This document shows positions 2,597 to 42,636 of a stretch of 42,636 nt of DNA, piece after piece. Under the pieces are notes generated by a model, which saw only the letters and a program-made list of their open reading frames with translations, made no database searches and was not told where the DNA came from. Numbering within the stretch: the stretch's first letter is position 1; each line of letters starts with the position of its first letter. This DNA is from a virus (lineage: Duplodnaviria; Caudoviricetes): the IMG/VR virus record IMGVR_UViG_3300033407_000046, positions 1 through 42,636 of that record; one strand, 5' to 3'. A program made the position numbers and the translations under genes.

Positions 2597-2633
2597 TACT
2601 ATTGGCAAAACTCAAACAAGGAGGAACCAACCC

Positions 2634-5632: not shown

Positions 5633-7197
5633 TGTCCGCCACCAAAAAGACCGGGCTTTTTGCCCCCTCTCGCCTCATCACCAATAGCTCCTCTCGCCAA
5701 TACGCCGCGGCCAAAGTCACCCGCCTGACCGGAGACTGGATACCCGCCGGCCAGTCCGTCAACCAGATCCTGCGCACCTCCGCCCCGGCCGTCACCCGCC
5801 GGGTCCGCCAGTTGGTCCGCGATTTCCCTTATTTCACCCGCGCCGCCAATATCATGGTCGATTTCACCGTTGGCACCGGCCACAATTTTCAGAGCCGTGT
5901 CCTTAGCCCCGACTGGAAACCCGGCGCCAAGGGAGGAAACAAATTCGACCGGGTTATCTGTCAAAAGATTGAGGATGCCGTCGCCTGGGCCATGGAAGAA
6001 CTCGACGCCGGCGGCCGGATGCACGGCGCCGAGCTCGAACGCCTTGCCAAGCTCGAAGAAGTCGAAGCCGGCGAGTTTCTGTTTGTCAAAGTCCTCGACA
6101 AAGACCCCAAGCGTTACATCCCCTACGCCCTGCAGCCCATCGAAGCCGAATGGCTCACCGACTACAATGCCCTTGTCATCGGTCAAAACAAAATCGAGCG
6201 GGGTGTCGAATACGATCCCCTCACAGGTCGGGCCGTCGCCTACCATATCGCCGACCCCGACAACCATCTTCTGCCCAGGCGCATCGAGGCCCAGTACATC
6301 CTGCACGGCTTTGACACCCGCCGCTCCGGCCAGCTGCGCGGCATTTCGCCCTTCGTCGCCGCGGTGCTCATCGCCCACGATCTCGACGACTATATCGGCG
6401 CCACCATCGACACCACCAAAGCCGCCGCCCGCTACCTGGCCCTGATCGAAACCCCCGACCCAGCAGCCTTCCAGGGAGCGCGGACGATCAATGGCACCGG
6501 CGCGGATGCAGGTAAAAAGATCGAAGAACTTGAAAACGCCATCATCGACTATCTGCGCCCCGGCGAAAAAGTCAGCTTTGCCAAAAACGACAACCCCGGC
6601 AGCACCTTCGAGCCGTTCACCAAATTTATCCTGCGCACAGTGGCCATTGCTACCGGTGTGCCTTTTTCGGCCCTGACCAATAACCACGCCGATTACAACT
6701 ACACCTCACTGCGCGGCGAGCGCCAGGACACCCTCAAAAGCTTCGAGCCTCACCAGACGCGCCATGGCCGTCAGTTAAAAGCACCGGTTGTGCGCGATAT
6801 CATCACCAGCGCTGTGATCAAAGGCCGTCTCGATCTGCCCGGCTATTTCAGTGACCCCCGCCGTTACTGGCGCGGGATGCACATCCCGCCCGGCATGGAG
6901 CCCATCGACCCCCTGCGCGAGAGCAAAGCCAACCGCGACGACATCAGCGCCGGTTTGCGATCGCCGCAGGAGATCGCCGCCAAACGCGGCCGCGATATCG
7001 AAGAGGTCCTTGACGAAATCGCCGAATTTAACGAGATGGTTACCGAGCGTGGCATCACCCTCGATATCGGCAGCACCGCCCTGGCCGGCAACCCTGCCGC
7101 CGTCGCCGGTGACGACCGCAGCCTGGTGCAGATCATCAGCCGCGCCGTTGAGGACGCCGTCGACCGCGCCGCAATGCTCAAAGAAACGGAGGAGTAG
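5632..7197 (+). CDS. Portal protein, lambda family
   Basis: RVRQLVRD, GVEYD..GRAVAYHI, RSGQLRGIS, NYTSLR, IDPLRE, GRDIEEV. Confidence 0.95.
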   Translation: MSATKKTGLFAPSRLITNSSSRQYAAAKVTRLTGDWIPAGQSVNQILRTSAPAVTRRVRQLVRDFPYFTRAANIMVDFTVGTGHNFQSRVLSPDWKPGAKGGNKFDRVICQKIEDAVAWAMEELDAGGRMHGAELERLAKLEEVEAGEFLFVKVLDKDPKRYIPYALQPIEAEWLTDYNALVIGQNKIERGVEYDPLTGRAVAYHIADPDNHLLPRRIEAQYILHGFDTRRSGQLRGISPFVAAVLIAHDLDDYIGATIDTTKAAARYLALIETPDPAAFQGARTINGTGADAGKKIEELENAIIDYLRPGEKVSFAKNDNPGSTFEPFTKFILRTVAIATGVPFSALTNNHADYNYTSLRGERQDTLKSFEPHQTRHGRQLKAPVVRDIITSAVIKGRLDLPGYFSDPRRYWRGMHIPPGMEPIDPLRESKANRDDISAGLRSPQEIAAKRGRDIEEVLDEIAEFNEMVTERGITLDIGSTALAGNPAAVAGDDRSLVQIISRAVEDAVDRAAMLKETEE

Positions 7198-7201
7198 GCT
7201 T

Positions 7202-24548: not shown

Positions 24549-24594
24549 TGGTGCCCAGGGACGGAATCGAACCGCCGACACGAGGATTTTCAGT
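24549..24594 (-). other. attP: attP core: 3' half of tRNA-Phe(GAA)
   Basis: Reverse complement is ACTGAAAATCCTCGTGTCGGCGGTTCGATTCCGTCCCTGGGCACCA (anticodon loop, T-arm, CCA), adjacent to the integrase 3' end. Confidence 0.93.
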
Positions 24595-24612: not shown

Positions 24613-25677
24613 TCATTCGTCATCTCGCGGGGTTATCTCCTCATCGGGTTGACTGGTGTAGCCGGGCAGTTTTGTTACCTCGCTGCGCAGGTGCTGGTTG
24701 CGCAGGTGGATGTATTCGCGGGTGGTGCGGATATCGCTGTGCCTGGCGATGGTCTGCAGGGCAGTGATTTCGACGCCGCATTCGATGCCGTGGGTGACGA
24801 AGCTGTGCCGGAACAGGTGGGCGTAGACGCGCTGGTCGATGCCGGCTTTTTCGGCCGCGCGGATGATCGCCTTGCGGATGCTGTGATAGGGCTTGCCATT
24901 GTTTTTGGGGTTGCGGAACAGGTACCCCAGGGGGTGCTGCCCTTTGGCTGTTTTCAGCACCTCGAACAATCGCGGGGTGGTGATGGGCAGGATCTTTTCC
25001 TTGTTGCCCTTGCCGATGACGCACACCTCGCGACTGTTGAGCCAGACGTCTTCTCCTTTGATCTGCAGCGCCTCTTCCCGTCTCAATCCCAGGTCATAAT
25101 ATAGCAGCAGGATCGGCCGGTATCGCTCCTCGATGTTGTCGATCACCGCCTGTACCTCGTCCATGCTCGGCACCCGGATCTGCGGCCGGCGCACTTTGGG
25201 GAACACCGGGATACGGAATGGTGGCTGGTTGCAATGACCATGGGCCGCCGCCCACTTCCAGAGGCTCGAAAACCAGGTTAGCTCTTTGTTGATCGTGCGT
25301 TTTCCGACCCCGTCTTGCAGCCGTGCAGTTTTATATTTTTCAATCAGGGGCTGGTTGAGGGCCGTCCAGAGTTTTTGCCCGAAGTGGGGCGATAGTTTCT
25401 TGAGACAGTTTTGAATGTCGAGGTAGGTGCTGGCTGCGTAATTGTTGCGCCCGGCTGCCAGCCACCCCGGCAGAGCGTCGATGACCTTGCCGTGCAGGGG
25501 CACGGCCGTCCCGTACTGGCGCCGGATCTGGGATTCCAGTTCCCAAGCCTCGCCCTCGGTCATGTCATTGGCTACCTGCTGCACCCGTTTGCCCTTGCGA
25601 CCCTGGGGGTAATAGTCGATGATCCAAGAGCGGGGGAGGATGTTGCCTTTGTTGTCTTTGTTGGGGCGGATGGACAT
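24613..25677 (-). CDS. int: Tyrosine integrase
   Basis: GLRREE, GKGNK, HLFRH, ARHSD, TREY catalytic residues. Confidence 0.95.
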   Translation of the reverse strand: MSIRPNKDNKGNILPRSWIIDYYPQGRKGKRVQQVANDMTEGEAWELESQIRRQYGTAVPLHGKVIDALPGWLAAGRNNYAASTYLDIQNCLKKLSPHFGQKLWTALNQPLIEKYKTARLQDGVGKRTINKELTWFSSLWKWAAAHGHCNQPPFRIPVFPKVRRPQIRVPSMDEVQAVIDNIEERYRPILLLYYDLGLRREEALQIKGEDVWLNSREVCVIGKGNKEKILPITTPRLFEVLKTAKGQHPLGYLFRNPKNNGKPYHSIRKAIIRAAEKAGIDQRVYAHLFRHSFVTHGIECGVEITALQTIARHSDIRTTREYIHLRNQHLRSEVTKLPGYTSQPDEEITPRDDE

Positions 25678-30267: not shown

Positions 30268-30975
30268 ATGCTGAGGATTAGGTTTGAGCATTTCGATGAG
30301 GTCGAGCGGGAACTTCGGCATCTTGGCAGGGATATGCCGAAGGCGGCAGCTATGGCAATCACCTGGGCAGCGCAGGCGGGAAAGCAAGCCACCCAGAAGA
30401 AGATGGACCGGATATTCGACCGGCCGACCAAATGGACGCGGGAAAGCACGTTCCTACAGGCCGCGGATATGCGGACATTGGAGGCAACGGTCTATATCAA
30501 GGAAGGGTCGCTATCTAGCCTGGCCCACCATGTGGAAGGCGGCCGCCGCCGGACGAAGACATCGGAAGATCTTCTCCGCCAAAAGGGCATTCTCAAAGGG
30601 TCGCACCAGTATATCGTCCCGTCTCTGGCACTAAAGCTCGACAAGTACGGGAATGTCCCTTATGGATTGATGAACCGGGTGCTGTCCTCGGTCGGAGCCC
30701 AGCGCGACAAAGCCTCCAACACCACCGCTAAATCCCTGCGACGCAACGCAGGGCAGGGCGACTTCTTCATCCTGCGCCGACAGAAGGGTACACACCCAGG
30801 CATCTACCGCCGTAAGGGAGGCAAGAAGAACCCACGCCTCGACCCCGTGTTGATGTTTGTCAAGAGTGTCAACTACAAACGCCGCTACCCCTTCCATGAG
30901 ATTGTCGAGGACGCTGCTTATGATGATCTGCCACGGGCCATCAGCCTGGCACTCAAGCGGATATCAGGCATATAA
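30268..30975 (+). CDS. Basic phage protein (gpZ/tail-completion-like family)
   Basis: DRIFDRPTKWT, LDKYGNVP, HPGIYRR, YKRRYPF. AAGGAG RBS. Confidence 0.75.
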   Translation: MLRIRFEHFDEVERELRHLGRDMPKAAAMAITWAAQAGKQATQKKMDRIFDRPTKWTRESTFLQAADMRTLEATVYIKEGSLSSLAHHVEGGRRRTKTSEDLLRQKGILKGSHQYIVPSLALKLDKYGNVPYGLMNRVLSSVGAQRDKASNTTAKSLRRNAGQGDFFILRRQKGTHPGIYRRKGGKKNPRLDPVLMFVKSVNYKRRYPFHEIVEDAAYDDLPRAISLALKRISGI

Positions 30976-31827: not shown

Positions 31828-34229
31828 GCTACCACGTCAATCACAACGATGTCCTCGATCAACTCACCAACCATGGTCTGATGGTCATGAGCCTTGAGGT
31901 CGATACCGACCGGGTCAAGCGGTGCACCACCCGAGACAGCGGCCGCGAAAAGTCCGGATGGTATTGGCTATCCTCCATCACCATCGGCAGCGACCCGTAT
32001 ATCGTCGGCGCCTACGGCATCTACCAGGGCAACGACAACGGAAAACAGAAAGTTGTCCTGAACAAAGAACAGACCGGACGACTCACCGCCGACCAGAGCA
32101 AAGCCCTTGCCGATCAGCAGCGAGCCGTCCGCAAAAAAGCCGACCTCGCACGCGCCAGCCAGCACAACCGCGCCGCCACCCGGGCAAAATCAGAATGGGA
32201 CAAACTTTCCGAAAACGGATCGAGCGATTATCTCACCGTAAAAAAGGTGGGAGCCTACGGCGTGCGCTTCGGCCCTCGCGGAGAGGTCGTTATCCCCATG
32301 CGCGACGGATCAGACGCCATCCGCGGGCTGCAGATGATCCTGCCAAAAGGCCACCCGCGCATTGCCAAGATCGAGCGCAATAAAGAGTTTTTCCCGGCCG
32401 GCCTCGGCCTGTCCGGAACCTGGCACCTCATCGGCGGCCATCCCCGCGAAATTCTGCTGATCACCGAAGGATACGCTACCGGGGCCAGCCTCCACGAGGC
32501 CACCGGTTATCCCGTCGCCGCCGTCTGGAGCGCCAACAACCTGCTAGCCGGTTGCAAGGCCCTGCATAAAAAGTATTCCCGTTGTCAGTTGCTCATCTGC
32601 GCCGACGACGACGCCATGCAGACCTGCGCCGCCTGCGACAAAATCACCGCTGTTACCAGCGACCTCTGCCAGCACTGCGGACAACCGCACCGCAAGCAAA
32701 ACGCCGGGATTTCCTGTGCCCAAGCTGCCGCCCTGTCCATCGGCTGTACCTGGATCGCGCCGCAGTTTGCAACCGAAAGACCGTCCGACCGCAAAGGCGA
32801 CACCGATTTCAACGATTTGCACGTTGCCGAAGGCCTGCGCATCGTCGGGGCTCAGATTAACGCCAAGGTGTCCGACCTGGGCTGTATCCGCCCCGCCATG
32901 GAGGTCGCCGCCTCGGCGACTGGGGGAGGGGGGGAAAAGCGTCCGCCCTTGAAATCGATGCTCAATACGGACGAAGCCCTGCAGCGCTTCTGTTTTGTCT
33001 ACGGCGGAAAAGGGACCATGTTTGACCAACAAGAACACTGTCTTATCCCCAAGGCCGACGTTCTCGACATCCTGCCCGAACACGGCTGGCGCGATATGCG
33101 CGCGCACAAAACCGTCGTGCGTCTCGATGAGGTCGGATTCGACCCCGCCGGGACTGACACGAATATCCGCTGCAACCTCTACGGTGGTTGGCCAACCGAA
33201 CCAAAAAAGGGCGACTGCAGCAAAATATTGGAGCTGCTGGGCTATTTATGCAGCAACGAAGTCGCCGCCGAAGACGTTTACAGTTGGGTCATTCGCTGGC
33301 TTGCCTACCCGATTCAGCACCCCGGCGCCAAAATGCAAAGCGCCCTTGTCTTTCACGGCCCGCAAGGCACCGGGAAAAATATGTTTTTTGAGACGATTAT
33401 GGCGATCTATGGCGAATACGGCCGGATCGTCGACCAGGCCGCCATCGAAGACAAATTCAACGACTGGGCCAGCCGAAAATTATTTCTTATCGCTGACGAA
33501 GTCGTCGCCCGCAGCGAGCTTTTCCACGTCAAAAACAAATTAAAAAGCTTCGTCACGGGCGAGTGGATACGGATCAACCCAAAAAACGTTTCAGCCCACG
33601 ATGAGCGCAACCACGTCAACCTGGTTTTTTTGTCCAACGAAGCCACCCCGCTAGTTCTTGAACACGACGACAGACGTTATATGGTCGTCCACACGCCGGA
33701 AAAACTCCCTGCCGAATTTTATAAATCCGTCCGGGCCGAGATTATCACCGGAGGCATTGCCGCCCTCCACCATCATCTAAAAACACTCGACCTCGGCGAT
33801 TTCAGTGTTTACACCAAGCCGCTGCACACCAAAGCCAAATTCCAGCTCATCGAGGCCAGCCTCGACAGTGTCAGTTCGTTCCTGCGCGAATGGTACCTGG
33901 GGGAGATCCACAAAATCCCCTTTTGCCCCTGCACTATCACCCAACTATTCGCCACCTACCAAAAATACTGTGCCGCCGCCGCCGAAAAATCCCCGCGCAA
34001 CAGGCGCCAGTTCATTGCCGAACTCAACATGCAACCAGGTTGGCGGGTCGGCCCCTTCCCGGTGAGGGTTTTGCCAGGGATAGAAGAGCGCACCACCCGA
34101 AAAATGATTATTCCATCCTCCGAGCTTTTAGCCGGTGGCGACTACACCAAACCGGAAAGCATCAGCCAGGAACAATGGCTAGCCGAGTGCCATCAGGCGT
34201 TCACCATCGCCGGAGACTTCCATTTATGA
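31824..34229 (+). CDS. DNA primase (Toprim)-SF3 helicase fusion
   Basis: ITEGYATG, ADDD, DFNDL, Walker A GPQGTGKN and Walker B LIADE. Confidence 0.93.
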   Translation: MSYHVNHNDVLDQLTNHGLMVMSLEVDTDRVKRCTTRDSGREKSGWYWLSSITIGSDPYIVGAYGIYQGNDNGKQKVVLNKEQTGRLTADQSKALADQQRAVRKKADLARASQHNRAATRAKSEWDKLSENGSSDYLTVKKVGAYGVRFGPRGEVVIPMRDGSDAIRGLQMILPKGHPRIAKIERNKEFFPAGLGLSGTWHLIGGHPREILLITEGYATGASLHEATGYPVAAVWSANNLLAGCKALHKKYSRCQLLICADDDAMQTCAACDKITAVTSDLCQHCGQPHRKQNAGISCAQAAALSIGCTWIAPQFATERPSDRKGDTDFNDLHVAEGLRIVGAQINAKVSDLGCIRPAMEVAASATGGGGEKRPPLKSMLNTDEALQRFCFVYGGKGTMFDQQEHCLIPKADVLDILPEHGWRDMRAHKTVVRLDEVGFDPAGTDTNIRCNLYGGWPTEPKKGDCSKILELLGYLCSNEVAAEDVYSWVIRWLAYPIQHPGAKMQSALVFHGPQGTGKNMFFETIMAIYGEYGRIVDQAAIEDKFNDWASRKLFLIADEVVARSELFHVKNKLKSFVTGEWIRINPKNVSAHDERNHVNLVFLSNEATPLVLEHDDRRYMVVHTPEKLPAEFYKSVRAEIITGGIAALHHHLKTLDLGDFSVYTKPLHTKAKFQLIEASLDSVSSFLREWYLGEIHKIPFCPCTITQLFATYQKYCAAAAEKSPRNRRQFIAELNMQPGWRVGPFPVRVLPGIEERTTRKMIIPSSELLAGGDYTKPESISQEQWLAECHQAFTIAGDFHL

Positions 34230-34480
34230 TTACGCTTATTACGATTATTACGCTTATGATTACGGTCCAACCCATTGATTTAATTGCATTATTACGCTTA
34301 TTACGCTTTTTCTCGCGCGCCATACGCGCGAGACGATACATAACCACACCACACGATACATATACGCGCGCGCGGATATGTATCGAATAACCGTAATAAC
34401 CGTAATAATATAGTAATATTAAACACTTGAACCGTAATCATAAGCGTAATAAGCGTAATAATTGGTCCAAAAGCGTAATA
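34229..34480. other. Replication origin with converging iterons
   Basis: About six ATTACG(C/A/G)T(T/C) copies on the left, inverted AA(G/C)CGTAAT copies on the right, central CGCGCG palindromes, AT-rich, directly after the primase. Confidence 0.8.
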
Positions 34481-34525
34481 ATCAATGGATTTGAGCTGGA
34501 TTCACTATTCAAAAGGAGAAAAACC

Positions 34526-34924
34526 ATGACCAAGGTTTACAGCACCAACGGCGAAGAATTCGACCACGAAGAGCTCGAAGAAGCCGTCGACGCAGTAATC
34601 GAAGATTCCTGGGGGATGCCCACGGATATTCTCGCCGTATCGGAAGGAGACAAAGTGCCTTTTCGCGCCGGGGATTTTCTGGAAGTGGACGATCTGCTGG
34701 AAATACTGGAACAACGGGCATGGTTTTTAGCCGAAGAATATGCCAGGGGGTGGCCGGGCGTTTCTTTGGTACAAAAAAATGATCTAGCCGAATTAGTCGC
34801 CGCCGCCATCAACACCTGGGCCGATGGCCACTGCCTTCAACCAACTTTTTTTCTCGTCAAAAACGTGAAAGAAATCAAAATTAAACTGCTGGACACAAAA
34901 GGCGCCTGGGAGATAGTCCAATGA
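34526..34924 (+). CDS. Acidic hypothetical protein
   Basis: AAGGAG RBS. Confidence 0.75.
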   Translation: MTKVYSTNGEEFDHEELEEAVDAVIEDSWGMPTDILAVSEGDKVPFRAGDFLEVDDLLEILEQRAWFLAEEYARGWPGVSLVQKNDLAELVAAAINTWADGHCLQPTFFLVKNVKEIKIKLLDTKGAWEIVQ

Positions 34925-35220
34925 GCCGAAAAACCGACTGGCAAGGCCCCTTCATCCTCTCCCTCATCTGCGCCCTGGCCGATGGCCTGCGCCAGGCAGA
35001 GCCCATCAGACACAGCGCCCGGGTCAACCGGGTAAACCGCGTCGAAGAAGCCGCCCTGCGCGCCATCGATTTCTACCCGCCCGCCGAACTCACGCCCCAG
35101 GTCATGGAGATGGCCACCCGATTTTTCGAGCAGGTGGAGGAGATGTTTCAGCAGGCATTTCCCCAGGAAGGACCCGCCTGGATTGAAGAGGTCGATTCAT
35201 GTCCAAGGTGCATCACGTGA
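34921..35220 (+). CDS. Hypothetical protein
   Basis: ATGA-coupled ORF. Confidence 0.65.
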   Translation: MSRKTDWQGPFILSLICALADGLRQAEPIRHSARVNRVNRVEEAALRAIDFYPPAELTPQVMEMATRFFEQVEEMFQQAFPQEGPAWIEEVDSCPRCIT

Positions 35221-35242
35221 GCGAAAAGGAAGGAAATTGACG

Positions 35243-35485
35243 ATGCCAAAAACAAAACTCCCAACTATTTATTCTCTACTGAGCGCGCTGCCATGGGTTT
35301 GTATCCTCCCCGGTCGCGGGATTATAGGCAAATATCCTTCTTTCCGTTTTTACTGGATCAATGACAAGTGGCTGGCCAGGGTTGGCCTATTTTCCATCTT
35401 CAAGATCGGGAAACGAGTGGGATTTCATCTGTTCTCGAAAAAAGAGAAAAACGCCGTCTTGAAACAAGGGCCAGCCGACCAATGA
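35243..35485 (+). CDS. Hypothetical protein
   Basis: AGGA RBS, lower GC. Confidence 0.5.
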   Translation: MPKTKLPTIYSLLSALPWVCILPGRGIIGKYPSFRFYWINDKWLARVGLFSIFKIGKRVGFHLFSKKEKNAVLKQGPADQ

Positions 35486-35598
35486 TAATGTCCACCCCTA
35501 AAACCTGCCCCAACTGCAACGGCCACCTCGCCAACATCGGCCAGGGCCTGCGAGAATGCGAGCAATGCGGAAAAATTCAAAAGGAGGAAAACCCATGA
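35482..35598 (+). CDS. Small Zn-ribbon protein
   Basis: CPNC...CEQC, ATGA overlaps. Confidence 0.55.
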   Translation: MIMSTPKTCPNCNGHLANIGQGLRECEQCGKIQKEENP

Positions 35599-36173
35599 TC
35601 GATCTTTCGAAGTTTTGCAGCAGCCAAAACGACAAAATGAAAACCCCGGCCACCATCGGCCTCTACACCTACGCCACCAATAACCACATAATCATCCGCG
35701 TTCCGGAAGGTGAGCACCACACGCCGCCGGTCGGGTTTCCCGCTGTTGATCACCTCCCCTGGATACACGACCAAGCCGCCGAATGGGTCAACCTGCCGGA
35801 CCTCGGCGAGATCAAGCCCGAATTTTGTACCCTCTGCGCCGGAACAGGCAAAACAATGATCTGCCCAGAATGCGACGGAGACGGCGCTTTAACCTTCTCG
35901 AATCACCATTCCTATTATGAGGTCTGTTGTGACACCTGCAATGGAGACGAGGTGCTCCCTAAGGGGCCGGATCAATGCCGCAATTGCGATGGCGTTGGTC
36001 AATGCGTCGCCCACAGCCCCATACCCTGGCAGCGCGGGAAAATCAACTCCCGCTACGTTTACCTGCTAAAGGATTTACCAGATATCCGAATAAGCACCCA
36101 CGGCAGCCCACTGGATCATATTCTATTCCGGTTTGACGGCGGTTGCGGCCTTCTCATGCCGATGCTGAAATAA
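35595..36173 (+). CDS. DnaJ-type Cys-rich Zn-finger protein
   Basis: Four CxxCxGxG-like repeats and a C-terminal GLLMPM. Confidence 0.75.
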   Translation: MIDLSKFCSSQNDKMKTPATIGLYTYATNNHIIIRVPEGEHHTPPVGFPAVDHLPWIHDQAAEWVNLPDLGEIKPEFCTLCAGTGKTMICPECDGDGALTFSNHHSYYEVCCDTCNGDEVLPKGPDQCRNCDGVGQCVAHSPIPWQRGKINSRYVYLLKDLPDIRISTHGSPLDHILFRFDGGCGLLMPMLK

Positions 36174-36185
36174 GGAGCCACACCC

Positions 36186-36404
36186 ATGCCCTGGATGCTG
36201 ATCACCTGCGGCCATTGCGCCCACACCGCCGACATCAACGCTTTCTGCAGCACACCCATCGGCGGCAAGCTTCCGAAAGACATCTACCAGTGCCCGGCCT
36301 GCAACTGCGCCATCCAGCGCCGCATGGCCCCGGCCACCATCCACCCTTCCGGATGGGTAGAGCCCGGCAAGATCACCCTCGAACCCATCGCCGCCAGACT
36401 ATAA
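36186..36404 (+). CDS. Small Zn-finger protein
   Basis: CGHC...YQCPAC. AAGGAG RBS. Confidence 0.7.
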   Translation: MPWMLITCGHCAHTADINAFCSTPIGGKLPKDIYQCPACNCAIQRRMAPATIHPSGWVEPGKITLEPIAARL

Positions 36405-36413
36405 GGAGCCCCA

Positions 36414-36935
36414 ATGCCCAATCCAGCCGCAAAACCCCAACCCATGCCCACCGCCGGACAGCAAGATGTGCTGCCCGAAGTCATCGCCGATCTGCAGGCC
36501 AGAGACGCCTTCGGCGTCAAAAAATACGGCACCACCCTGCAGACCCGCAACGGCCGCGATCCGCTCATGGACGCCTATCAAGAAAGCCTCGATCAGGCCA
36601 TGTATCTCAAACAGGCCATCCTTGAGCGCAACAACCCGGCGCCAACCTACAACTGGCCGAAAACCATCTTCGTCAGCCGCAACACCCTCATCGACCAACT
36701 TGCCCACATCCTCAGCGAGGTAGACGAGATCACTCAGCTCGGGCCGCCAGTCACCACGCCCCTGCTCCACATGGAGCTCGCCGACCTGCACCACAGTTTA
36801 GAGACCCTCTGGCAAATCCTCGAACGCCAGGCAGGACAGGATTATGTCGCCGCAATATTCCAGGCCGTCGAGGAAAAAAACCGGGTTCGCGGGTATTACG
36901 ACCTGGAAGGGTTTGGCGAGATCGAAATTATTTAA
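36414..36935 (+). CDS. MazG-like (all-alpha NTP pyrophosphatase) two-domain protein
   Basis: GVKKYGTTL..YQESLDQAMYL and SEVDE..ELADL..KNRVRGYY. Confidence 0.6.
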   Translation: MPNPAAKPQPMPTAGQQDVLPEVIADLQARDAFGVKKYGTTLQTRNGRDPLMDAYQESLDQAMYLKQAILERNNPAPTYNWPKTIFVSRNTLIDQLAHILSEVDEITQLGPPVTTPLLHMELADLHHSLETLWQILERQAGQDYVAAIFQAVEEKNRVRGYYDLEGFGEIEII

Positions 36936-36957
36936 CGCTTGAGATCCTATAACCCTT
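36930..36957 (-). repeat. attC: Internally deleted attC remnant (attC0)
   Basis: TAACGCTTGAGATC is identical to the start of attC3, then TAACCCT is complementary to AGGGTTA at the cassette end. Confidence 0.6.
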
Positions 36958-36975
36958 TACGAGTGGAGGTTGCAA

Positions 36976-37158
36976 GTGACGAAAGAAAATATTCCCGGCA
37001 AGGTTGAGATGCTCGATGCACCTGAACTGAATCAGGACGTGGTGAGAATTACTGAGGAGATTCTTAGGCAGAATGCAGAAATTATCAAGATGAATGGCCG
37101 GTTGCTTGCTGTGTTGTCTGCCGCTTCGCAATTCGTAGTCTGGCGCGAAGAGGGTTAA
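36976..37158 (+). CDS. Cassette A: small hypothetical protein
   Basis: GGAGG RBS. Stop TAA lies in the core site. Confidence 0.65.
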   Translation: MTKENIPGKVEMLDAPELNQDVVRITEEILRQNAEIIKMNGRLLAVLSAASQFVVWREEG

Positions 37159-37217
37159 CGACTGAGGTCAAGGGCTCGGCGCAGTTTGCCGAGTCCGCTT
37201 GCAGCGATTGGTTAAAC
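37153..37217 (-). repeat. attC: attC1
   Basis: Minus strand: GTTTAAC-CAATC-GCTGCAAG...CTTGACC-TCAGTC-GTTAACC. Confidence 0.9.
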
Positions 37218-37241
37218 GGCGCTTTTCATCCGGAGACGAAT

Positions 37242-37547
37242 ATGAAAACGATAAAACTCGCAGAATTTTTAAAAGAGGCAGAGGCTCGTTTCGGCGGGGC
37301 AACTCATAAATGGAAATTTGTTTGCCCGAGTTGCAAGACGGCGCAAAGCGCAGAGGATATGGTTGCCGCTGGCGTGAGCAAGGAGGATGTTGGCAGGTAC
37401 GTCGGATTTTCATGCGTGGGTAGATTCAACAAGGGGAAAACCGGCTGTGACTGGACTCTCGGAGGACTGTTCCGGATACACGAACTGGAGATTGAGGACG
37501 AAAGCGGCAAAATGCACCCGCATTTCGACCTGGCAGAAGCCGTTTAA
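37242..37547 (+). CDS. Cassette B: Cys-rich phage protein (VVA0879-like)
   Basis: WKFVCPSC..QS, FSCVGRF, GCDWTLGGLF. Confidence 0.8.
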   Translation: MKTIKLAEFLKEAEARFGGATHKWKFVCPSCKTAQSAEDMVAAGVSKEDVGRYVGFSCVGRFNKGKTGCDWTLGGLFRIHELEIEDESGKMHPHFDLAEAV

Positions 37548-37600
37548 CACTTGAGGTCAAGGGCTCGCGTAGCGAGTCCGCTTGCAGCGATTGGTTATGT
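37542..37600 (-). repeat. attC: attC2
   Basis: Same L/R boxes as attC1 with a shorter loop (59 bp). Confidence 0.9.
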
Positions 37601-37626
37601 GGCGAGGGTGCCACGAAGGAGAGAGT

Positions 37627-38079
37627 ATGGAACTGACAAAAGAGACATTTGAGGACTTCGTGAACCGCCTCCGTTATCACAATAAAGGTGAAGGCGTGAA
37701 TGACCATTGCACACGTGACCCTATTTTCATCGTGCAGAGTCGCAAGCGCGTGTATGGGTTCGACCAGCAATACGAAGGTGATTACGTTTGGTGCGATACG
37801 GCCAACGAACATGACGAAGCGGACGCACTCATGGCCAAAAGGCTCGATGTTCTGGATGATGGCGGAAGGGAAACCGGCAAGTGGGAGAAAGTTTACTATG
37901 TTGACCGGTGGGATTACGTTTGCTCCCACTTCACCAAAGAGGCAGCGTCTACGTTCATTGATCGCAAAAAGCACGACCACCACGAACTCCGCATTTATGT
38001 TGACTGTCAGCTTTACTGTTGGGAGTACAACGCAATTATTAACGGGCTGTTGGACGGGAAAATAACGTTCAACGGGTAG
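37627..38079 (+). CDS. Cassette C: hypothetical phage protein
   Basis: TRDPIFIVQ..HFTKEAA..RKKHD..LRIYV. AAGGAG RBS. Confidence 0.8.
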   Translation: MELTKETFEDFVNRLRYHNKGEGVNDHCTRDPIFIVQSRKRVYGFDQQYEGDYVWCDTANEHDEADALMAKRLDVLDDGGRETGKWEKVYYVDRWDYVCSHFTKEAASTFIDRKKHDHHELRIYVDCQLYCWEYNAIINGLLDGKITFNG

Positions 38080-38081
38080 CC

Positions 38082-38136
38082 ACATAACGCTTGAGATCAC
38101 GGGCGCGAAGCGTCCGCGTGGATCGACTGGTTCTAA
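38082..38136 (-). repeat. attC: attC3
   Basis: Minus strand: TTAGAAC-CAGTC-GATCCACG...CGTGATC-TCAAGC-GTTATGT. Confidence 0.9.
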
Positions 38137-38178
38137 AGGGTTTTTGCGCTCTGGCGAAGCCAGATAAGGATTTTGATT

Positions 38179-39030
38179 ATGGGTTTATTCGAGACAACAG
38201 AAGAAGAGCTTTACCTGATTGCCATAAGCCGGCCCCTGGAAGAGAAGATTGAACAGGCTATATCTCTTATCCATGTGATGGAAAGCCAAGCGTTGAAATT
38301 ATCTGATGATGGCTTTTACGTCTGCTTTTCTGGCGGTAAAGACAGTATTGTTATGGCTAAACTGTTCGAGTTGGCCGGTGTTAAATATGATCTACATTAC
38401 AACAATGTGACAATCGATCCGCCTGAACTGGTCCGCTTCATCAAGCGGGAATACCCTCACGCAGAATGGCATTCTGTCGGCAAGCACCTGATTAACTACA
38501 TGGCCGAAGCCAAGGTTTGCGGGCCACCAACACGCCGAATTCGCTGGTGTTGCGAAATTTACAAAGAACAGGGGGGCATTGATAAATTCCGGGCAATAGG
38601 GGTGAGGGCTGAAGAATCTGTCAGGCGTAAGGGGTTATGGAGGCAGATTACCACTGACAGGAAAACTAAAAAGCCCATTTTGTGCCCTATTTTATATTGG
38701 ACAGATGCTGATATTTGGGCATTCATCGGACAACAAAAAATGGCCTATTGCGGCCTCTACGATGAGGGCTTTTCTCGGCTCGGCTGTGTTGGTTGCCCGA
38801 TGGGAGGGCCTAAAGGGCAAGCCCGAGATTTTGCCCGATGGCCCAAATATGAGGCCATGTGGAAACGTGGATTCCAAAGGTATTGGGACAAATACAAAGG
38901 CGTTCCGAAGCGGAACGGTGAACCTCGGGCAATCGAGAAATTCCCGACAGTTGACGATCTATGGGACTGGTGGACCAGCGGCAAAGCCTACGAAGGCAAC
39001 AAACCGGATTGCCAACTGTGGCTGTGGTAG
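38179..39030 (+). CDS. Cassette D: PAPS reductase family protein
   Basis: FSGGKDS PP-loop, RWCC, GVRAEES, RLGCVGCP. Confidence 0.9.
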   Translation: MGLFETTEEELYLIAISRPLEEKIEQAISLIHVMESQALKLSDDGFYVCFSGGKDSIVMAKLFELAGVKYDLHYNNVTIDPPELVRFIKREYPHAEWHSVGKHLINYMAEAKVCGPPTRRIRWCCEIYKEQGGIDKFRAIGVRAEESVRRKGLWRQITTDRKTKKPILCPILYWTDADIWAFIGQQKMAYCGLYDEGFSRLGCVGCPMGGPKGQARDFARWPKYEAMWKRGFQRYWDKYKGVPKRNGEPRAIEKFPTVDDLWDWWTSGKAYEGNKPDCQLWLW

Positions 39031-39048
39031 GTTTTGCGCGAAAAGACT

Positions 39049-39113
39049 TTAGAACGGCTGAGGTCAAGGGCTCGGCGCAGTTTGCCGAGTCCGCTTGCAG
39101 CGATTGGTTCGGC
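39049..39113 (-). repeat. attC: attC4
   Basis: Body is 54/55 identical to attC1. Confidence 0.9.
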
Positions 39114-39138
39114 GGCGCTTTTACCACGGAGACGGGAT

Positions 39139-39321
39139 ATGGCCAGAGTTGAAAGAGCTAAATGCCACAATTGTGAACACCGGTGGATGGTGGATATTGA
39201 CCCAGAGGGCGATTATGGGTGTTACCGGATTCACGGGTGCAAAAAGCCGAAGAAACAGAAATTTAAGGGGAAGGCGGCATGGTATGCCGGGTCACCTTGC
39301 CCTGACTTTCAACCATTTTAG
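39139..39321 (+). CDS. Cassette E: small Cys-rich protein
   Basis: CHNC..C..CPDF. GGAG RBS. Confidence 0.65.
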   Translation: MARVERAKCHNCEHRWMVDIDPEGDYGCYRIHGCKKPKKQKFKGKAAWYAGSPCPDFQPF

Positions 39322-39327
39322 CAAGCT

Positions 39328-39460
39328 GCAGAACGCTTTAGCTAACGGGCTTGCGGCCCAAGAGGTAGACAGATGCAACCATGGCAAAAAGACCCTTTAG
39401 GCGTAGAAAAACCGCAAAATACCGAGTGTAGCAAGTCCGCCGTTGAGCGACTGGTTAGCC
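39328..39460 (-). repeat. attC: attC5 (long, 133 bp)
   Basis: Minus strand: GGCTAAC-CAGTC-GCTCAACG...CGTTAGC-TAAAGC-GTTCTGC. Confidence 0.85.
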
Positions 39461-39612
39461 AACCTGCCCCAACAACTATACGAGCGCTAAATGACATGGC
39501 GACCATTTGCCGGGAAGCTCTGATTACTGTGCGCATGGACCCCGCATGGCACACCTCATTAGATGAGCAAACGAAAAACGATGTTGTTAAGGCATTGCGC
39601 CTGATTGGATAA
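39373..39612 (+). CDS. Cassette F: small protein starting inside the attC5 loop
   Basis: GAGG RBS and ATG lie in the loop. Stop TAA lies in the next core site. Confidence 0.55.
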   Translation: MQPWQKDPLGVEKPQNTECSKSAVERLVSQPAPTTIRALNDMATICREALITVRMDPAWHTSLDEQTKNDVVKALRLIG

Positions 39613-39669
39613 CGGGCCTGCGGGTAAACCGCGACCGTAGGGAGTCGGATTTTGACCCGCTGGTTATCT
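39607..39669 (-). repeat. attC: attC6
   Basis: Minus strand: AGATAAC-CAGCG-GGTCAAA...TTTACC-9 nt-GTTATCC. Confidence 0.75.
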
Positions 39670-39690
39670 GGCGGGTGATCGGAGAGACCA

Positions 39691-39873
39691 ATGGACATCG
39701 TAATGGACTGCAACGAGGTGGTAACCATCCATTTTACGAAAGGCAGAAATGAGCCGGGCGCTATTATTACCATCGCTCAGGGTATGCCCGGCCTCGGAAA
39801 TGTCGAGATCAAAGGAGAGACTAAGACGGTCAATTACAGGGTCGTCAAGGGATCTATTGAGGAAGCTAAGTGA
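39691..39873 (+). CDS. Cassette G gene 1: hypothetical protein
   Basis: GGAG RBS. Confidence 0.6.
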   Translation: MDIVMDCNEVVTIHFTKGRNEPGAIITIAQGMPGLGNVEIKGETKTVNYRVVKGSIEEAK

Positions 39874-40025
39874 GGCTCATAGTTTCCACTATTTCGCTCG
39901 TTGCGGCGAACTTCATCTATCAGTATTTCGCGGGACACCTCTGGGACGTCGCCGTTGAACGGTCACTATTCGAGGTCACTGCAATTTTTACAGTTTGGGT
40001 GAACGGATCGGTTCAATCCAGATAA
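39870..40025 (+). CDS. Cassette G gene 2: 51-aa membrane protein (not in the ORF track)
   Basis: GTGA overlap. MRLIVSTISLVAANFIYQYFAG...VQSR, stop in the core site. Confidence 0.55.
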   Translation: MRLIVSTISLVAANFIYQYFAGHLWDVAVERSLFEVTAIFTVWVNGSVQSR

Positions 40026-40056
40026 CAAGGCTTATACAGACCCCCCCCTATATAAC
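40020..40056 (-). other. attI/attG-like recipient site
   Basis: Core G|TTATCT with no attC hairpin, and a second GTTATAT 30 bp upstream on the minus strand. Confidence 0.55.
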
Positions 40057-40080
40057 CCCATATCTTAATTCGCGGAGCGG

Positions 40081-40269
40081 ATGCCAACGATGGAACAAAA
40101 ACCGATTACAGCAAAAACGATAGGCGAACTGCGTGATGCGCTGGACAAGATTATCCAGGAGCATGGGCCAGACTTCGAGTGGAACGGGTTCGATGATGAA
40201 TCGATTTATATTTATTCGAAACATGATGGCCCCGGGGAATCGTTCGAGATTCGGCCTCGTGGCGTTTAG
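40081..40269 (+). CDS. Small hypothetical protein
   Basis: GGAG RBS, KTIGELRDAL. Confidence 0.6.
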   Translation: MPTMEQKPITAKTIGELRDALDKIIQEHGPDFEWNGFDDESIYIYSKHDGPGESFEIRPRGV

Positions 40270-40295
40270 CCTTTGACAAAAGGACCGCCTTTAAC

Positions 40296-41045
40296 ATGAC
40301 CGACCGCACCCAACAACTCATGGACGTCGCCAGCCCGCACGAAAAAGCCGAGCTGGCCACCATGCACAACGCCGTCATCCAGTGCATGCAGGCCTACAAA
40401 AAAGCCAGCACCGCCACCAACAAACGCGACTGGGACGCCGCGCGCAACGGCCTGCACGACGTTGTCGAACGCCTCTGGCCGGTCTACTTCCCCGCCGAGG
40501 CCGCCGCCGATCCCGAGGTATTCGAGCAGCAAAAGGCCGCTCTCGCCTGGCTGCACAACCGCTTCGGCAAACCGTACCCGTCCGCCGGCAAATTCTCCCA
40601 GGACATCCGCGACGGCCTCTGTCGCCAGCAGGAAAACCGCACCATCCTGCGCAAAGAGCTCAAAAAATACGCCGAGATCATCGCCCACGACAAAAAAGCC
40701 GCCAACCTCTCAGCCGACAAAGCCGCCCAGCGCGAAGACCTCGAAATCGAAAAACTCCAGTTAGAGGTCGCCAAACGCAAAATGGAAAACCGCAAAGAAG
40801 ATAAAAACTGGATTGCCCGCGATATCGTCTTCGAACGCGAAGGCGCCCTGGTCGGCCAGATCATGGGCGAGGCCCGCCACCACCTCGGCCGCTCCGTGCC
40901 CGCCCTCATCCACGCCGCCAAGGGCGAGCTAGAACGCACCCCCGAAATAAAAAAGATCCTCGAAGAAGCCCTTTTCGATGCCTTTCGCGCCATGTACGAA
41001 TCTGGAGAAATCGACATGACCTTCCTCGACGAAGAAGCCGAATGA
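40296..41045 (+). CDS. terS: Putative terminase small subunit
   Basis: Overlaps the terL start. Coiled coil EIEKLQLEVAKRKME..WIAR. Confidence 0.7.
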   Translation: MTDRTQQLMDVASPHEKAELATMHNAVIQCMQAYKKASTATNKRDWDAARNGLHDVVERLWPVYFPAEAAADPEVFEQQKAALAWLHNRFGKPYPSAGKFSQDIRDGLCRQQENRTILRKELKKYAEIIAHDKKAANLSADKAAQREDLEIEKLQLEVAKRKMENRKEDKNWIARDIVFEREGALVGQIMGEARHHLGRSVPALIHAAKGELERTPEIKKILEEALFDAFRAMYESGEIDMTFLDEEAE

Positions 41046-42636
41046 TGCAACCCGCCCTGACCGCCGACATCTTCGCCCAGCCGCTGCCCGACTTCTTTCC
41101 CGAGTCGCTGCGCCGCGCCTGCGCTGGCAAGCAGATCCGCTACACCCTGCCCCGGGCCGTGCGCGAGCGCATGCAGGTACCCGAAGACCTCACCGTCAGC
41201 CAGTGGGCCGAAAAGCACCGCCGCGTCACCGAGATCGACGCCCAGCCCGGCCGCTGGCGACAAGACCTCGTCCCCCACACCAAAAAGCTCATGGACTTTA
41301 TCAGCCTGCCCTGGGTCCGCGAGGTCTGGCTGTGCATGGTCGAGCGCGCCGGGAAAACCCAGGTGCTGCTCAACGCCGCCATGTGGCAGATCGACCGCGG
41401 TATCGACTCCGGCAACGTCTTCTGGCTCATGCCCAGCGAAAACGAAGCCAAGAAAGCCCTCGGCGAGCGCATCATTCCCGCCCTCAAGGCCAGCCCGCGC
41501 ACCGCCCGTCTGCTGTCCCGCTACGCCGACGACACCTCCCGCTCCCTGGTGCGCTGCAACCACGGCCCGCGCCTGATCCCCGCCTGGTCCAACAGCCCGG
41601 CCTCTTTGTCCTCGTTTTACGGCAAACTGCGCATCGGCGACGAAATCGACAAAAACGCCGACCGCTCCGGCGGCGAAACCGATTCCATCACCCTGCTCAA
41701 AAAACGCGGCCGCGACAGCGACGACTCCAAACTGTTGCTGGCTAGCACCCCGGCCGGGAAATTTATTTACAAGGGCATGCTCGCCGCCCAGCAGGTCTGG
41801 GCCTACCATAGCCGCTGCCCGCACTGTCGCGAGTTTGTCCTCATGGATGCCGAGCATTTCGTCATCCCCAAGGGTGCCACCGTCGAGAGCGTCAAGCACG
41901 GCGAGCACTCCGTTGTCTACGACTGCAACGCCTGCGGGGTCGAGTGGGACGAAGCTGATCGCGCCGAAGCCTACCAGGCCGGGGACTTTGTCGCCATCAA
42001 AGGGGCCGACGTTGAACGCCCCGAATCCATCGGCGCGCACATGCCAGCCTTCCCCCTGCCCAACATCAAGATGGCCGAAATCGGCGCCGCCATCGTCCGC
42101 GCCCGCTCCGGAGATCTCGCCGCCTTGATGGACCTGGCCCACGGCTACAAGGCCATCGATTACACCGCCGAAACCAAAGACCGCCAGGAAGACACCATCC
42201 TCCTGCTGCGCGACGACCGCCCCGCCGGAGTCGTGCCCACCTGGACCGACGCCCTGGAGATCAGCATCGACACCCAGGACAACGGTTTCTGGTACCGCAT
42301 CCGCGCCTGGCGCTACGGCATCGACCTAAAAAGCGCCCTCGTCAAAGCCGGATACGTGCCCAGCGCCTGCGCCAGCGACTTTACTTCCCTCGATGCCCTC
42401 ATCGCCGCCGAATACCCCGACGAAAACGGCGAGCCCCACCGCATCATGGCCGGCATCATCGACAGCGCAGGCCACCGCACCGGCGAGGTATACGCCTGGT
42501 GCCGCACCAGCGGAGTCCTGCCCGCCAAAGGAGCCCAGGGCCGCAAGACCCAACCCGTCACCGTCAGCCGCATCGATCGCTACCCCGGCAACAACAAGCC
42601 GATCCCCGGCGGCCTCAACCTCTACCACATCGACAC
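41042..42636 (+). CDS. terL: Terminase large subunit (GpA family), N-terminal part, about 652 aa in total
   Basis: VSQWAEKHR..PGRW, RAGKTQ, GDEIDK, ASTP, CPHC, IDTQD, IDSAG. Open to the window end. Confidence 0.93.
   Translation, partial: MMQPALTADIFAQPLPDFFPESLRRACAGKQIRYTLPRAVRERMQVPEDLTVSQWAEKHRRVTEIDAQPGRWRQDLVPHTKKLMDFISLPWVREVWLCMVERAGKTQVLLNAAMWQIDRGIDSGNVFWLMPSENEAKKALGERIIPALKASPRTARLLSRYADDTSRSLVRCNHGPRLIPAWSNSPASLSSFYGKLRIGDEIDKNADRSGGETDSITLLKKRGRDSDDSKLLLASTPAGKFIYKGMLAAQQVWAYHSRCPHCREFVLMDAEHFVIPKGATVESVKHGEHSVVYDCNACGVEWDEADRAEAYQAGDFVAIKGADVERPESIGAHMPAFPLPNIKMAEIGAAIVRARSGDLAALMDLAHGYKAIDYTAETKDRQEDTILLLRDDRPAGVVPTWTDALEISIDTQDNGFWYRIRAWRYGIDLKSALVKAGYVPSACASDFTSLDALIAAEYPDENGEPHRIMAGIIDSAGHRTGEVYAWCRTSGVLPAKGAQGRKTQPVTVSRIDRYPGNNKPIPGGLNLYHID
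42511..42636. repeat. Terminal direct repeat, copy 2
   Basis: Identical to 14-139. Confidence 0.95.

Follow-up and report, generated by a model that had tools for sequence, protein, structure and literature searches.

Integrons are taught as bacterial devices. In a canonical cassette the gene lies upstream of its attC site in the same orientation, and the cassette is mobilised by the integron integrase, IntI. In the Treponema denticola type the intI gene is flipped, lying upstream of the array and pointing toward it, while genes and attC sites keep their usual relation. Some recent work presents integron cassettes as anti-phage stores. To our knowledge, the first making of cassettes is an open question.

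One proposal on cassette origin is mentioned in PMC7923331, which is cited here, like PMC3001079, PMC9892861 and 10.1101/2022.02.06.479319, from excerpts. 'Reverse orientation' IntIs are described from Spirochaetota (10.1101/2022.02.06.479319). Phage attC arrays have also been published, including attC clusters without intI (phage CALINs) and methyltransferase cargo (Qi 2023; PMC9892861). The attC sites of phage PH101, which resemble attC2 of the present locus, are recombined by IntI1 with a preference for the bottom strand, and the complete phage integrons of that paper were captured from bacteria (Vibrio, class 1, Shewanella) and have canonical genes. In the excerpts cited, PH101 is described as typical, and there is no mention of an inverted class, a phage IntI clade, an attI-only platform or sister-phage turnover.

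The window analysed here is a stretch of 42,636 nt from a Caudoviricetes virus, a circular record with a 126-nt terminal overlap. Its array is very probably a phage-resident integron in a form without integrase. It comprises seven cassettes bounded by attC, with their genes on the bottom strand, and an attI-like site at which an IntI from a sister phage or the host likely acts. With class 1 and sedentary chromosomal integrons and VchIntIA (PDB 2A3V) it shares the attC anatomy, the paired cassette ends and the attI layout, with a repeat at +27 to +29; the intI of the sister phage (L028) is alike in family score, in its insertion and in pointing away from the array. In contrast to bacterial integrons, the genes lie on the bottom strand and read toward intI, and attC precedes its gene and can contain the start codon. 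Expression, which comes from Pc in bacteria, would here come from the phage operon, and the platform is a fixed module of a temperate phage, without intI in the window. In inverted-integrase integrons intI and the cassette genes also share one strand, but there intI is flipped, upstream of a canonical array and directed toward it, whereas here only the genes are flipped and the arrangement of intI, attI and attC is the usual one, the sister intI lying downstream of the cassette genes and pointing away.

Layout of the locus

The array occupies a place in a rightward phage operon ahead of the terminase genes (Table 1). Its GC content is 0.505 against 0.574 and 0.638 in the flanks, and the GC skew is reversed within it. 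At the left border, the stop codon of the preceding backbone gene overlaps the AAC. Family searches gave no match for the putative terminase small subunit, Rfam no match inside the array and ARAGORN no complete tRNA in the window; blastn of the array against 50,697 GenBank phages found no match.

The integrase of the window belongs to the ordinary phage type. As the original prediction held, it does not have the IntI-specific insertion: 65 residues separate GKG from the histidine of HxxR, compared with 106 in true IntI. The absence of intI was confirmed too, with nothing above the TIGR02249 cut-off in the circular record. Unlike a complete integron, the window has no intI adjacent to its array, and it fits the definition of a CALIN (at least 2 or 3 attC sites with no intI nearby). 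The predicted attP beside the phage integrase matches the 3' half of tRNA-Phe genes, and the three matches checked are tRNA-Phe. Its full 46-nt pattern was matched in none of five sequence sets, and conservation of the shorter match is too high for a host to be named from it.

Table 1. Features of the array, its flanks and the phage integration module
Feature	Coordinates	Strand	Remarks
attP-like 3' half of tRNA-Phe	24549..24594	-	38 nt, at most 1 mismatch, in 117/151 genomes of the order of G001
Ordinary phage integrase, not IntI	24613..25677	-	PF00589; TIGR02249 73.6 bits vs cut-off 265
Left backbone gene	36414..36935	+	97.7% identity in sister phage; 63-65% in L156 and L352, there also preceding an array
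attC0, decayed	36930..36960	-	R', spacer and L' start retained; inner part deleted
Cassette 0 gene, 62 aa	36970..37158	+	No family; frozen cassette; identical in sister
attC1	37153..37217	-	36 bits; crossover AA|C at 37158/37159
Cassette 1 gene, VVA0879 family	37242..37547	+	NF041591 106.5 bits, cut-off 37
attC2	37542..37600	-	31.1 bits; viral locus L004 has a nearly identical body
Cassette 2 gene, phage family of unknown function	37627..38079	+	phrog_3205, E 1e-23
attC3	38082..38136	-	32.4 bits
Cassette 3 gene, PAPS-reductase-domain protein	38179..39030	+	PF01507, E 5e-20; phrog_424
attC4	39049..39113	-	30.7 bits; body almost the same as attC1
Cassette 4 gene, 60 aa, Cys-rich	39139..39321	+	ORF with RBS; family search negative
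attC5, long	39328..39460	-	22.2 bits; its gene's RBS and start codon lie in the terminal loop
Cassette 5 gene, 79 aa	39373..39612	+	Starts at 39373, inside attC5
attC6	39607..39669	-	Anatomy, 9-nt spacer; 37-nt part 86-92% like attC-type sites of host-class genomes
Cassette 6, two short genes	39691..40025	+	ORFs 39691-39873 and 39870-40025
attI-like site	40020..40056	-	AAC, 5 nt, TTA, TAAC repeat at +27; crossover 40025/40026
62-aa ORF	40081..40269	+	No family; occupies place of intI in sister
Putative terminase small subunit, backbone	40296..41045	+	Named from position only; sister identity restarts at its ATG
Terminase large subunit	41042..42634	+	PF05876, PF20454; crosses circular junction

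The attC sites and their strand

The six attC sites of the original prediction (attC1 to attC6) are real, and their coordinates were right. On the minus strand they read R'', 5 nt, L'' (8 nt with an extra fourth base), loop, L', 6 nt and R', with 9 nt as the last spacer in attC6. A covariance model trained on 22 bacterial and class 1 attC sites only, and on no phage sites, matched five of the six when run on the whole window, every one on the minus strand (22-36 bits, E 1e-6 to 3e-3); its next-best match had E 1. The sixth, attC6, was not recovered by this model and is recognised from its anatomy. A grammar scan found five sites in the window, whereas 60 resampled sequences gave 0.15 per 3.2 kb. 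With attC3 alone as the query, only chance matches were returned. The earlier inventory had overlooked the decayed attC0 and the attI-like site. A homologue of the cassette 0 gene (55%) forms a complete cassette with an intact attC in prophage L303, and in run X2 a different attC body follows position 36937.

The ends of each cassette had been described as complementary, and overall this stands: beyond GTT they pair at 33 of 36 positions, the top of 720 pairings (mean 17.7). Pairing is complete in cassette 6 (6/6) and imperfect in cassettes 4 (4/6) and 5 (5/6). A relative of cassette 3 shows a compensatory change in these paired ends.

Every gene of the array is on the plus strand and the top strand of every attC on the minus, as originally reported; no gene has the canonical position upstream of attC on the top strand. 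Since attC sites are imperfect palindromes, the inversion could be an artefact, with cassettes that are canonical on the plus strand or hairpins that serve as terminators or regulatory repeats. Free MFE folding does not separate the strands, whose energies differ little, and the first grammar scan called attC3 on the plus strand; scored in both orientations, it falls on the minus (7 vs 5 L-box pairs). Against this reading, four independent lines agree on the strand, namely the bacterial-only model, the position of attI and intI, the breakpoint in the sister phage and an intron. The model is also able to call the plus strand, and does so in phage TJE1. The artefact explanation is largely refuted and has very little probability left.

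The intron, of group II, interrupts an attC of the sister phage on the plus strand at TTGT|T (TIGR04416 349.9 bits). According to the excerpts cited, group IIC-attC introns enter the bottom strand of attC (PMC3001079, PMC7923331), with the same target, TTGT|T in R'', as here. The intron is thus an independent marker of the plus strand as the bottom strand. Such introns are normally antisense to cassette genes, whereas in the sister phage the intron lies on the same strand as the genes.

Turnover at the locus and the attI-like site

The sister phage is 94% identical to the window up to 37160 and 96% from 40295. The difference begins exactly at AA|C of attC1 and ends where the next backbone gene starts. 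In the sister this stretch holds other cassettes, an attI and a gene for a true integron integrase (TIGR02249 415.8 bits, cut-off 265; VchIntIA 2A3V as best PDB match, E 1e-78) with codon use like that of the backbone. The two phages share gene 0 and not the attC1 body, so this body moves together with its right-hand gene, which is what the inverted reading demands. Intact units of attC2 with its gene (37548-38088) and of attC5 with its gene (39332-39614, followed by another attC) in run X2 are consistent with this, the run evidence being contigs in which several joints have sides of less than 30 nt. AA|C is both the breakpoint in the sister and the end of the contig pieces, and it is where the original prediction had expected gain and loss among related phages. 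A metagenome scan for further sister arrays gave the window's own record only, and a left-anchor scan the sister only.

At the right end, the layout of the attI-like site recurs before phage intI genes (repeat at +28) and in attI1 (+29). The window's attI sequence, which differs from that of the sister, is found with other cassettes in L269 and in runs X2, X3 and X7; it was beside an intI at none of the loci compared. Layout and turnover together point to an attI at the integrase-side end of the array. The attI pattern gave four matches in 401 host-class genomes and four in a reversed control, and two further candidate attI loci (L267 and L268) were set aside as chance matches. A promoter scan found no promoter-like site at attI and no excess over chance, and the genes face away from the Pc direction. 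The adjacent 62-aa ORF has third-position C of 0.17 against 0.59-0.66 in backbone genes and the sister intI; family search gave no informative relative, and the Atlas no match above 0.80.

The array might also be a frozen relic, built while intI was present, whose only changes now come from homologous recombination among phages at repeated attC bodies. The circular record has no intI, attC0 is decayed, and the near-identity of attC1 and attC4 could allow them to recombine. Where copies of one cassette have diverged (85%, about 72% and 66% protein identity), the attC body is not retained. Bodies are thus swapped, and over longer times a cassette does not persist as a fixed unit. This explanation is nonetheless improbable, since all cassette ends still pair and, in three other runs and L269, differing cassettes adjoin the intI-less attI allele at 40023/40024, with no common sequence left of AAC. 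One of the diverged copies, cassette 3 at 85% in prophage L352, has the same ends and different neighbours. Separately, cassette 3 of the window (38164-39045) was uncovered in the four runs examined, an observation of no evidential weight.

Source of the integrase

An integron integrase stands next to attI at the same locus in the sister phage and in many relatives. The sister intI falls in a tree clade of 22 rows, all viral or prophage, and one prophage within a 1.36-Mb contig carries an attC array, attI, intI (78%), terminase, portal and capsid. We infer that the window would borrow its enzyme from a sister phage or the host; for this genome the two sources are about equally likely.

The original prediction had named host IntI, possibly co-induced by SOS. 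Such borrowing is possible, and in its strict form the array would be a CALIN dependent on a host chromosomal IntI that is SOS-induced with the prophage, the phage intI genes of relatives being incidental. Of 401 host-class genomes, 192 contain an IntI-like match. Prophage L352 (terminase 79%) lacks intI but carries 8-9 attC sites and an attI-like end, and the genome around it encodes a chromosomal IntI (447.6 bits); attI-only arrays occur also in L011/L353 and L269. In addition, attC6 has a body like that of host-class sites that accompany canonical genes, and IntI1 recombines phage attC sites (PMC9892861). However, the phage IntI clade stands beside attI at this very locus in sister and relatives, with backbone codon use, and the intI and intI-less alleles are both present in runs X2 and X7, so that the sister IntI is an equally open source. 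SOS co-induction found no support: a strict E. coli-type LexA box was seen before 0 of 29 phage intI genes, 2 of 14 host-class chromosomal ones and 3 of 3 gammaproteobacterial controls, although its absence from 12 of the 14 host-class genes makes this a weak test. Sole dependence on the host is unlikely.

In the preferred reading of a phage-resident integron, ordinary IntI chemistry would act on folded bottom strands, and an intI from sister phage or host would insert and excise cassettes at the attI site. The placement of intI and attI would let intI read with the phage operon; read-through would then transcribe reversed-gene cassettes only, and selection would retain the reversed pool. The newest cassette would enter next to attI, at the far end of the transcript, and intI would be expressed with the lytic operon and not from its own SOS promoter. 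The window lineage may have lost or swapped out intI and be served in trans. Alternatively, the sister may have gained intI: one relative, 82% identical in terminase, bears a methyltransferase at the locus and lacks an array there.

Cassette pools in phages and bacteria

The suggestion of a phage-side pool of reverse-oriented cassettes is borne out by an orientation tally, in which strands were called by an RBS-weighted ORF rule and the viral loci contain near-duplicates (Table 2). Pooled, 63 of 90 viral and prophage cassettes are inverted and 5 canonical, against 12 inverted and 114 canonical among 153 bacterial ones; 18 bacterial rows are training sites of the covariance model. Dropped beforehand were five duplicate viral rows, viral rows with E > 0.01, one truncated bacterial row and, in the host-class set, L316, L309:191 and rows with E > 0.05. 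The tally rule replaced a cruder one based on the longest ORF, which short viral genes made too weak: under it 13 viral cassettes were plus, 6 minus and 19, or half, unclear.

Table 2. Orientation of cassette genes relative to attC
Source	n	Inverted	Canonical	Unclear	No body
Viral	78	53	5	13	7
Host-class prophages	12	10	0	1	1
Bacterial	106	10	78	11	7
Host-class chromosomes	47	2	36	5	4

Inversion is not universal among phage arrays, since the cassettes of TJE1 are canonical. With two of the three arrays of PMC9892861 that were checked inverted (PH101 and MW202573, not TJE1), published phage CALINs would need re-reading. The inverted-integrase arrangement was observed in L186, L203, L204 and L232. 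On the origin of the phage IntIs, the FastTree topology needs at least three changes, and a single clade is not rejected (p-AU 0.099 on 44 of 151 rows).

Phages appear to own integron machinery. The chances are even that the integron has become a domesticated core module of temperate phages, in which IntI clades specific to phages, with portable attI-only platforms located in the lytic operon, shuffle mirror-image cassettes that phages, and not host integrons, can express, repeatedly made from phage genes joined to attC bodies of a pool shared with the host. Reversed coding would separate the phage and host pools in expression, while chemistry and attC bodies stay common. DNA-methyltransferase cassettes are numerous among the phage arrays and would offer combinatorial tuning of counter-defence. 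If the domesticated-module reading is true, phage populations would be a place to trace cassette birth. The PAPS-reductase family occurs both as a plain phage gene and as a cassette, and its cassette copies are not one clade; the origin of cassettes is thus testable by phage comparison. PADLOC gave only a partial match, to the PAPS domain of BrxP. Virus Rctr41k carries an IntI-like gene with a single weak attC match.

Anatomy of the cassette array

The original prediction described a cassette array in which every gene runs against its attC site, and its anatomical part stands. Six attC sites lie at the predicted positions. Read on the minus strand, all consist of R'', a 5-nt spacer, L'' of 8 nt with one additional base at position 4, a loop, L', a 6-nt spacer (9 nt in attC6) and R'. 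To avoid circularity, a covariance model was trained on 22 attC sites from bacterial and class 1 sources only. In the whole window it gives five matches with E < 0.01, all inside the array and all on the minus strand, while attC6 was not detected in this search. The same model is able to report the plus strand, as it does for the canonical array of phage TJE1. The paired cassette ends match at 33 of 36 positions, the top score among 720 pairings. All array genes are on the plus strand, opposite to attC, and most of their starts are preceded by RBS-like sequences. The GC content of the array is below that of its flanks, and its GC skew is opposite to theirs.

Features of the array and its right border in the window
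Feature	Position	Place or strand	Basis
Half attC	36930-36960	left end of array	inspection of sequence
Gene 0 (62 aa)	36970-37158	cassette 0	
attC1	37153	minus	
attC2	37542	minus	
attC3	38082	minus	
attC4	39049	minus	
attC5	39328	minus	
attC6	39607	minus	
attI-like site	40020-40056	right end of array	
62-aa ORF (no family)	40081-40269	plus	

At window position 39373, an RBS and a gene start lie within the attC terminal loop, so that the protein begins in the recombination site. The same arrangement is seen in L269, L303 (17749) and L352 (8771), and forms a recurring attC5-type family.

A 55% homologue of gene 0, the gene next to the half attC, forms a complete cassette in prophage L303, where its attC is intact. 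The half site and gene 0 make up a seventh, frozen cassette. At the right end of the array, the last cassette terminates in AAC, 5 nt, TTA, and TAAC stands at +27. This layout also precedes intI in 22 phage loci inspected, and is matched in attI1 of a class 1 record (repeat at +29); the site is therefore read as a putative attI. An unrelated viral record (58 kb) carries the window's attI with a different array containing the attC1 body, and no IntI match was found in this record, which is 81% complete. In sequencing run X1, the window attI (40023-40069) is present in other contigs too, followed by other genes and a C run of varying length. This stretch may represent a portable attI-only platform.

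A sister phage with its own integrase

Between the window and its sister phage L028, identity is 94% over window positions 32039-37160 and 96% over 40295-41935. Identity ends one base past the AAC of attC1 and restarts at the ATG of 40296. Between these flanks, L028 carries a different attC, two cassettes (the first for a cytosine methyltransferase), an attI-like site and a gene for a 322-aa protein; in the window, the 62-aa ORF occupies the place of this gene. Against the integron integrase model (cut-off 265), the 322-aa protein reaches 415.8 bits. Its stretch from GKG to HxxR spans 106 residues, and its best PDB match is VchIntIA. Third-position C is 0.66 in this intI, the same as in the terminase gene; it is 0.16-0.35 in cassette genes and 0.17 in the 62-aa ORF.

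Gene 0 is common to both phages and the attC1 body is not, so this body goes with the gene to its right. In addition, a 1,896-nt group II intron (TIGR04416, 349.9 bits) interrupts the first L028 attC on the plus strand, at the motif TTGT|T. Group IIC-attC introns are described as targeting TTGT|T of the bottom strand, usually antisense to genes (PMC3001079, PMC7923331); the L028 intron is likened to them by insertion motif and strand. The sharing pattern and the intron strand fix the orientation of the array model-free.

The intron (L028:5166-7061) has an intact RT gene and shares its strand with the phage genes, and thus could splice out of the phage transcript. Within one L028 cassette, two long ORFs in different frames overlap (7093-7803 and 7109-7786), and they match the methyltransferase-class families phrog_363 and phrog_1008; similar phrog_1008 matches occur in L162 and L166.

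A family of phage integrons

Searches for IntI gave 17 and 60 viral loci as well as 80 bacterial ones, and 192 of 401 host-class genomes were positive, five with a phage-type enzyme at 65-78%. In one of these (G187), the gene lies inside a prophage on a 1.36-Mb contig, in the order primase, four attC cassettes, attI, intI, terminase, portal, protease and capsid. A homologue of the window terminase genes begins within 1.5 kb past intI in at least 17 of 55 viral IntI loci, a lower bound since window proteins served as queries. When 83 viral loci are oriented with the query gene on plus, 106 of 108 covariance-model matches are on minus.

Orientation of cassette genes relative to attC (the viral tally includes five window cassettes and some near-duplicates)
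Source	n	Inverted	Canonical	Unclear	No defined body
Viral loci	78	53	5	13	7
Host-class prophages	12	10	0	1	1
Bacterial loci	106	10	78	11	7
Host-class chromosomes	47	2	36	5	4

As a class, the cassettes of this family lack the canonical gene orientation. Many viral strand calls are confirmed by sense-strand PHROG matches, a check that took in ORFs of the presumed coding strand only; DNA methyltransferases are a frequent product. Single inverted cassettes, for example toxin-antitoxin pairs with their own promoters, are known in chromosomal integrons.

In a 152-row tree, L028 IntI falls within a 22-row clade made up of viral and prophage rows only (support 99). Another clade comprises 21 viral rows and one bacterial contig. 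A 44-row tree gives the wider first clade a support of 84, and a single origin is not rejected. The locus exists in three states: attI with intI (L028, L127, L156, L303), attI alone (the window, L352, L011/L353), and no array (L027).

A G272 contig has, downstream of intI, a second group of inverted attC cassettes (L305:10379-11999). Further lone attC sites occur at L136:8236 and L150:10115, two 668-nt copies form a tandem duplicate cassette at L165:5566-6904, and an attC body is repeated at L352:10691-11034. Two bacterial MAG contigs (L236, L183) scored as inverted and a bacterial IntI within a phage clade (L243) may be prophage contigs. On host-class contigs, a relative of cassette 2 is flanked by two attC-like sites (L354:9125-9790), and a lone attC6-like site is present in L355 (G318:C16:147670-147732); neither terminase nor intI was matched near either locus. 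The GenBank phage Rctr41k (L122, KX853513.1:4680-5678) has an IntI-like gene (45%) annotated as xerD, with one weak attC match downstream.

The text of Qi et al. 2023 (PMC9892861) describes 17 phage CALINs together with captured bacterial integrons, and activity of IntI1 on phage attC sites. The present model, combined with GenBank annotation, assigns an inverted layout to PH101 and MW202573 and a canonical one to TJE1; PH101 is labelled typical in that text, although the figures there may show strands. Searches of the open-access PMC and bioRxiv literature yielded no description of phage IntI clades whose genes are inverted, and none was found in the passages searched of PMC8876359, PMC8946536, PMC8618304, PMC9024848 and 10.1101/2022.02.06.479319.

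Mechanism and source of the enzyme

The window array is predicted to work like an integron, and the family as a whole qualifies as one by definition; taken by itself, the window is a CALIN plus a putative attI. Excision of cassettes as circles from folded bottom strands and insertion at attI belong to the established chemistry of IntI (PMC5027507, PMC8946536). Most likely, IntI would handle window-type cassettes in this way and with the usual polarity. Because intI is oriented with the phage operon, the genes of canonical cassettes would be antisense, and those in reverse orientation would be the only ones read; selection for the latter would maintain a mirror pool of cassettes. The attI to intI start gap of about 55-85 nt in the L028 IntI clade fits read-through.

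The phage integrase of the window is not an IntI, and the whole record is without one, as was predicted, so the enzyme would have to act in trans. The proposed integron reading is borne out for the attC cassettes, inverted genes and AA|C change, but not for the host as sole IntI source: a sister or co-resident phage, such as L028 with its own intI, is about as probable a supplier as the host. IntI-family genes are present elsewhere in the hosts of the two attI-only prophages, with scores of 447.6 and 328 bits. That the array is frozen is less probable than either trans source.

Turnover and exchange of attC bodies

Contigs from four of 20 listed runs, which show presence only, were compared with window 36400-40800; X1 is possibly the window's own source. 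In X2, 37548-38088 (attC2 and gene) is present without differences within longer contigs, as is 39332-39614 (attC5 and gene), there followed by another attC-like body. Contig pieces stop at 37160 in X2, X3 and X7, and attI with the 62-aa ORF is found in all three, each time with other left neighbours. X2 and X7 also contain the end of the L028 intI joined to 40295. Several of these joints have short sides and may derive from other phages. In both X2 and X7, an allele of attI and the 62-aa ORF still matches the window for about 30-37 nt of the following gene, beyond which it diverges; 40296-40332 may be where intI and non-intI alleles were exchanged.

The L352 relative of cassette 3 has 85% identity and the same ends, and an attC body unlike attC3. 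L354 and L011 likewise have differing bodies, in cassette 2 and cassette 3 respectively. It follows that attC bodies are exchanged, against the simple cassette picture. The attC1, attC2 and attC4 bodies each recur with many genes. Part of attC6 resembles sites of six host-class genomes, where the longer ORF runs in the canonical direction. The PAPS-reductase gene is a cassette in five of 17 copies, as labelled from their flanks, and the cassette copies do not form one clade (p-AU 0.0007). Repeated cassette birth accounts for this no better than border loss or gene swaps within an old shell.

The phage and its host

The termini of the 42,636-base record overlap by 126 nt, and thus it is circular. 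It encodes lambda-like head genes, tail genes, a repressor region, a primase, and a tyrosine integrase adjoining the 3' half of tRNA-Phe. The host is likely a member of the Desulfuromonadia, because close prophages occur in genomes from the same class as the Geobacter record G001, and the sister-IntI clade includes a member labelled Geopsychrobacter.

A phrog_1924 (minor tail protein) gene at 30268-30975 is situated in the early region, well apart from the cluster of tail genes. A ParB-like/methyltransferase-associated gene and a radical SAM gene are located between terminase and portal (1398-3356). In L027, an 82% relative, a ParB-methyltransferase gene stands at the position of the window's array.
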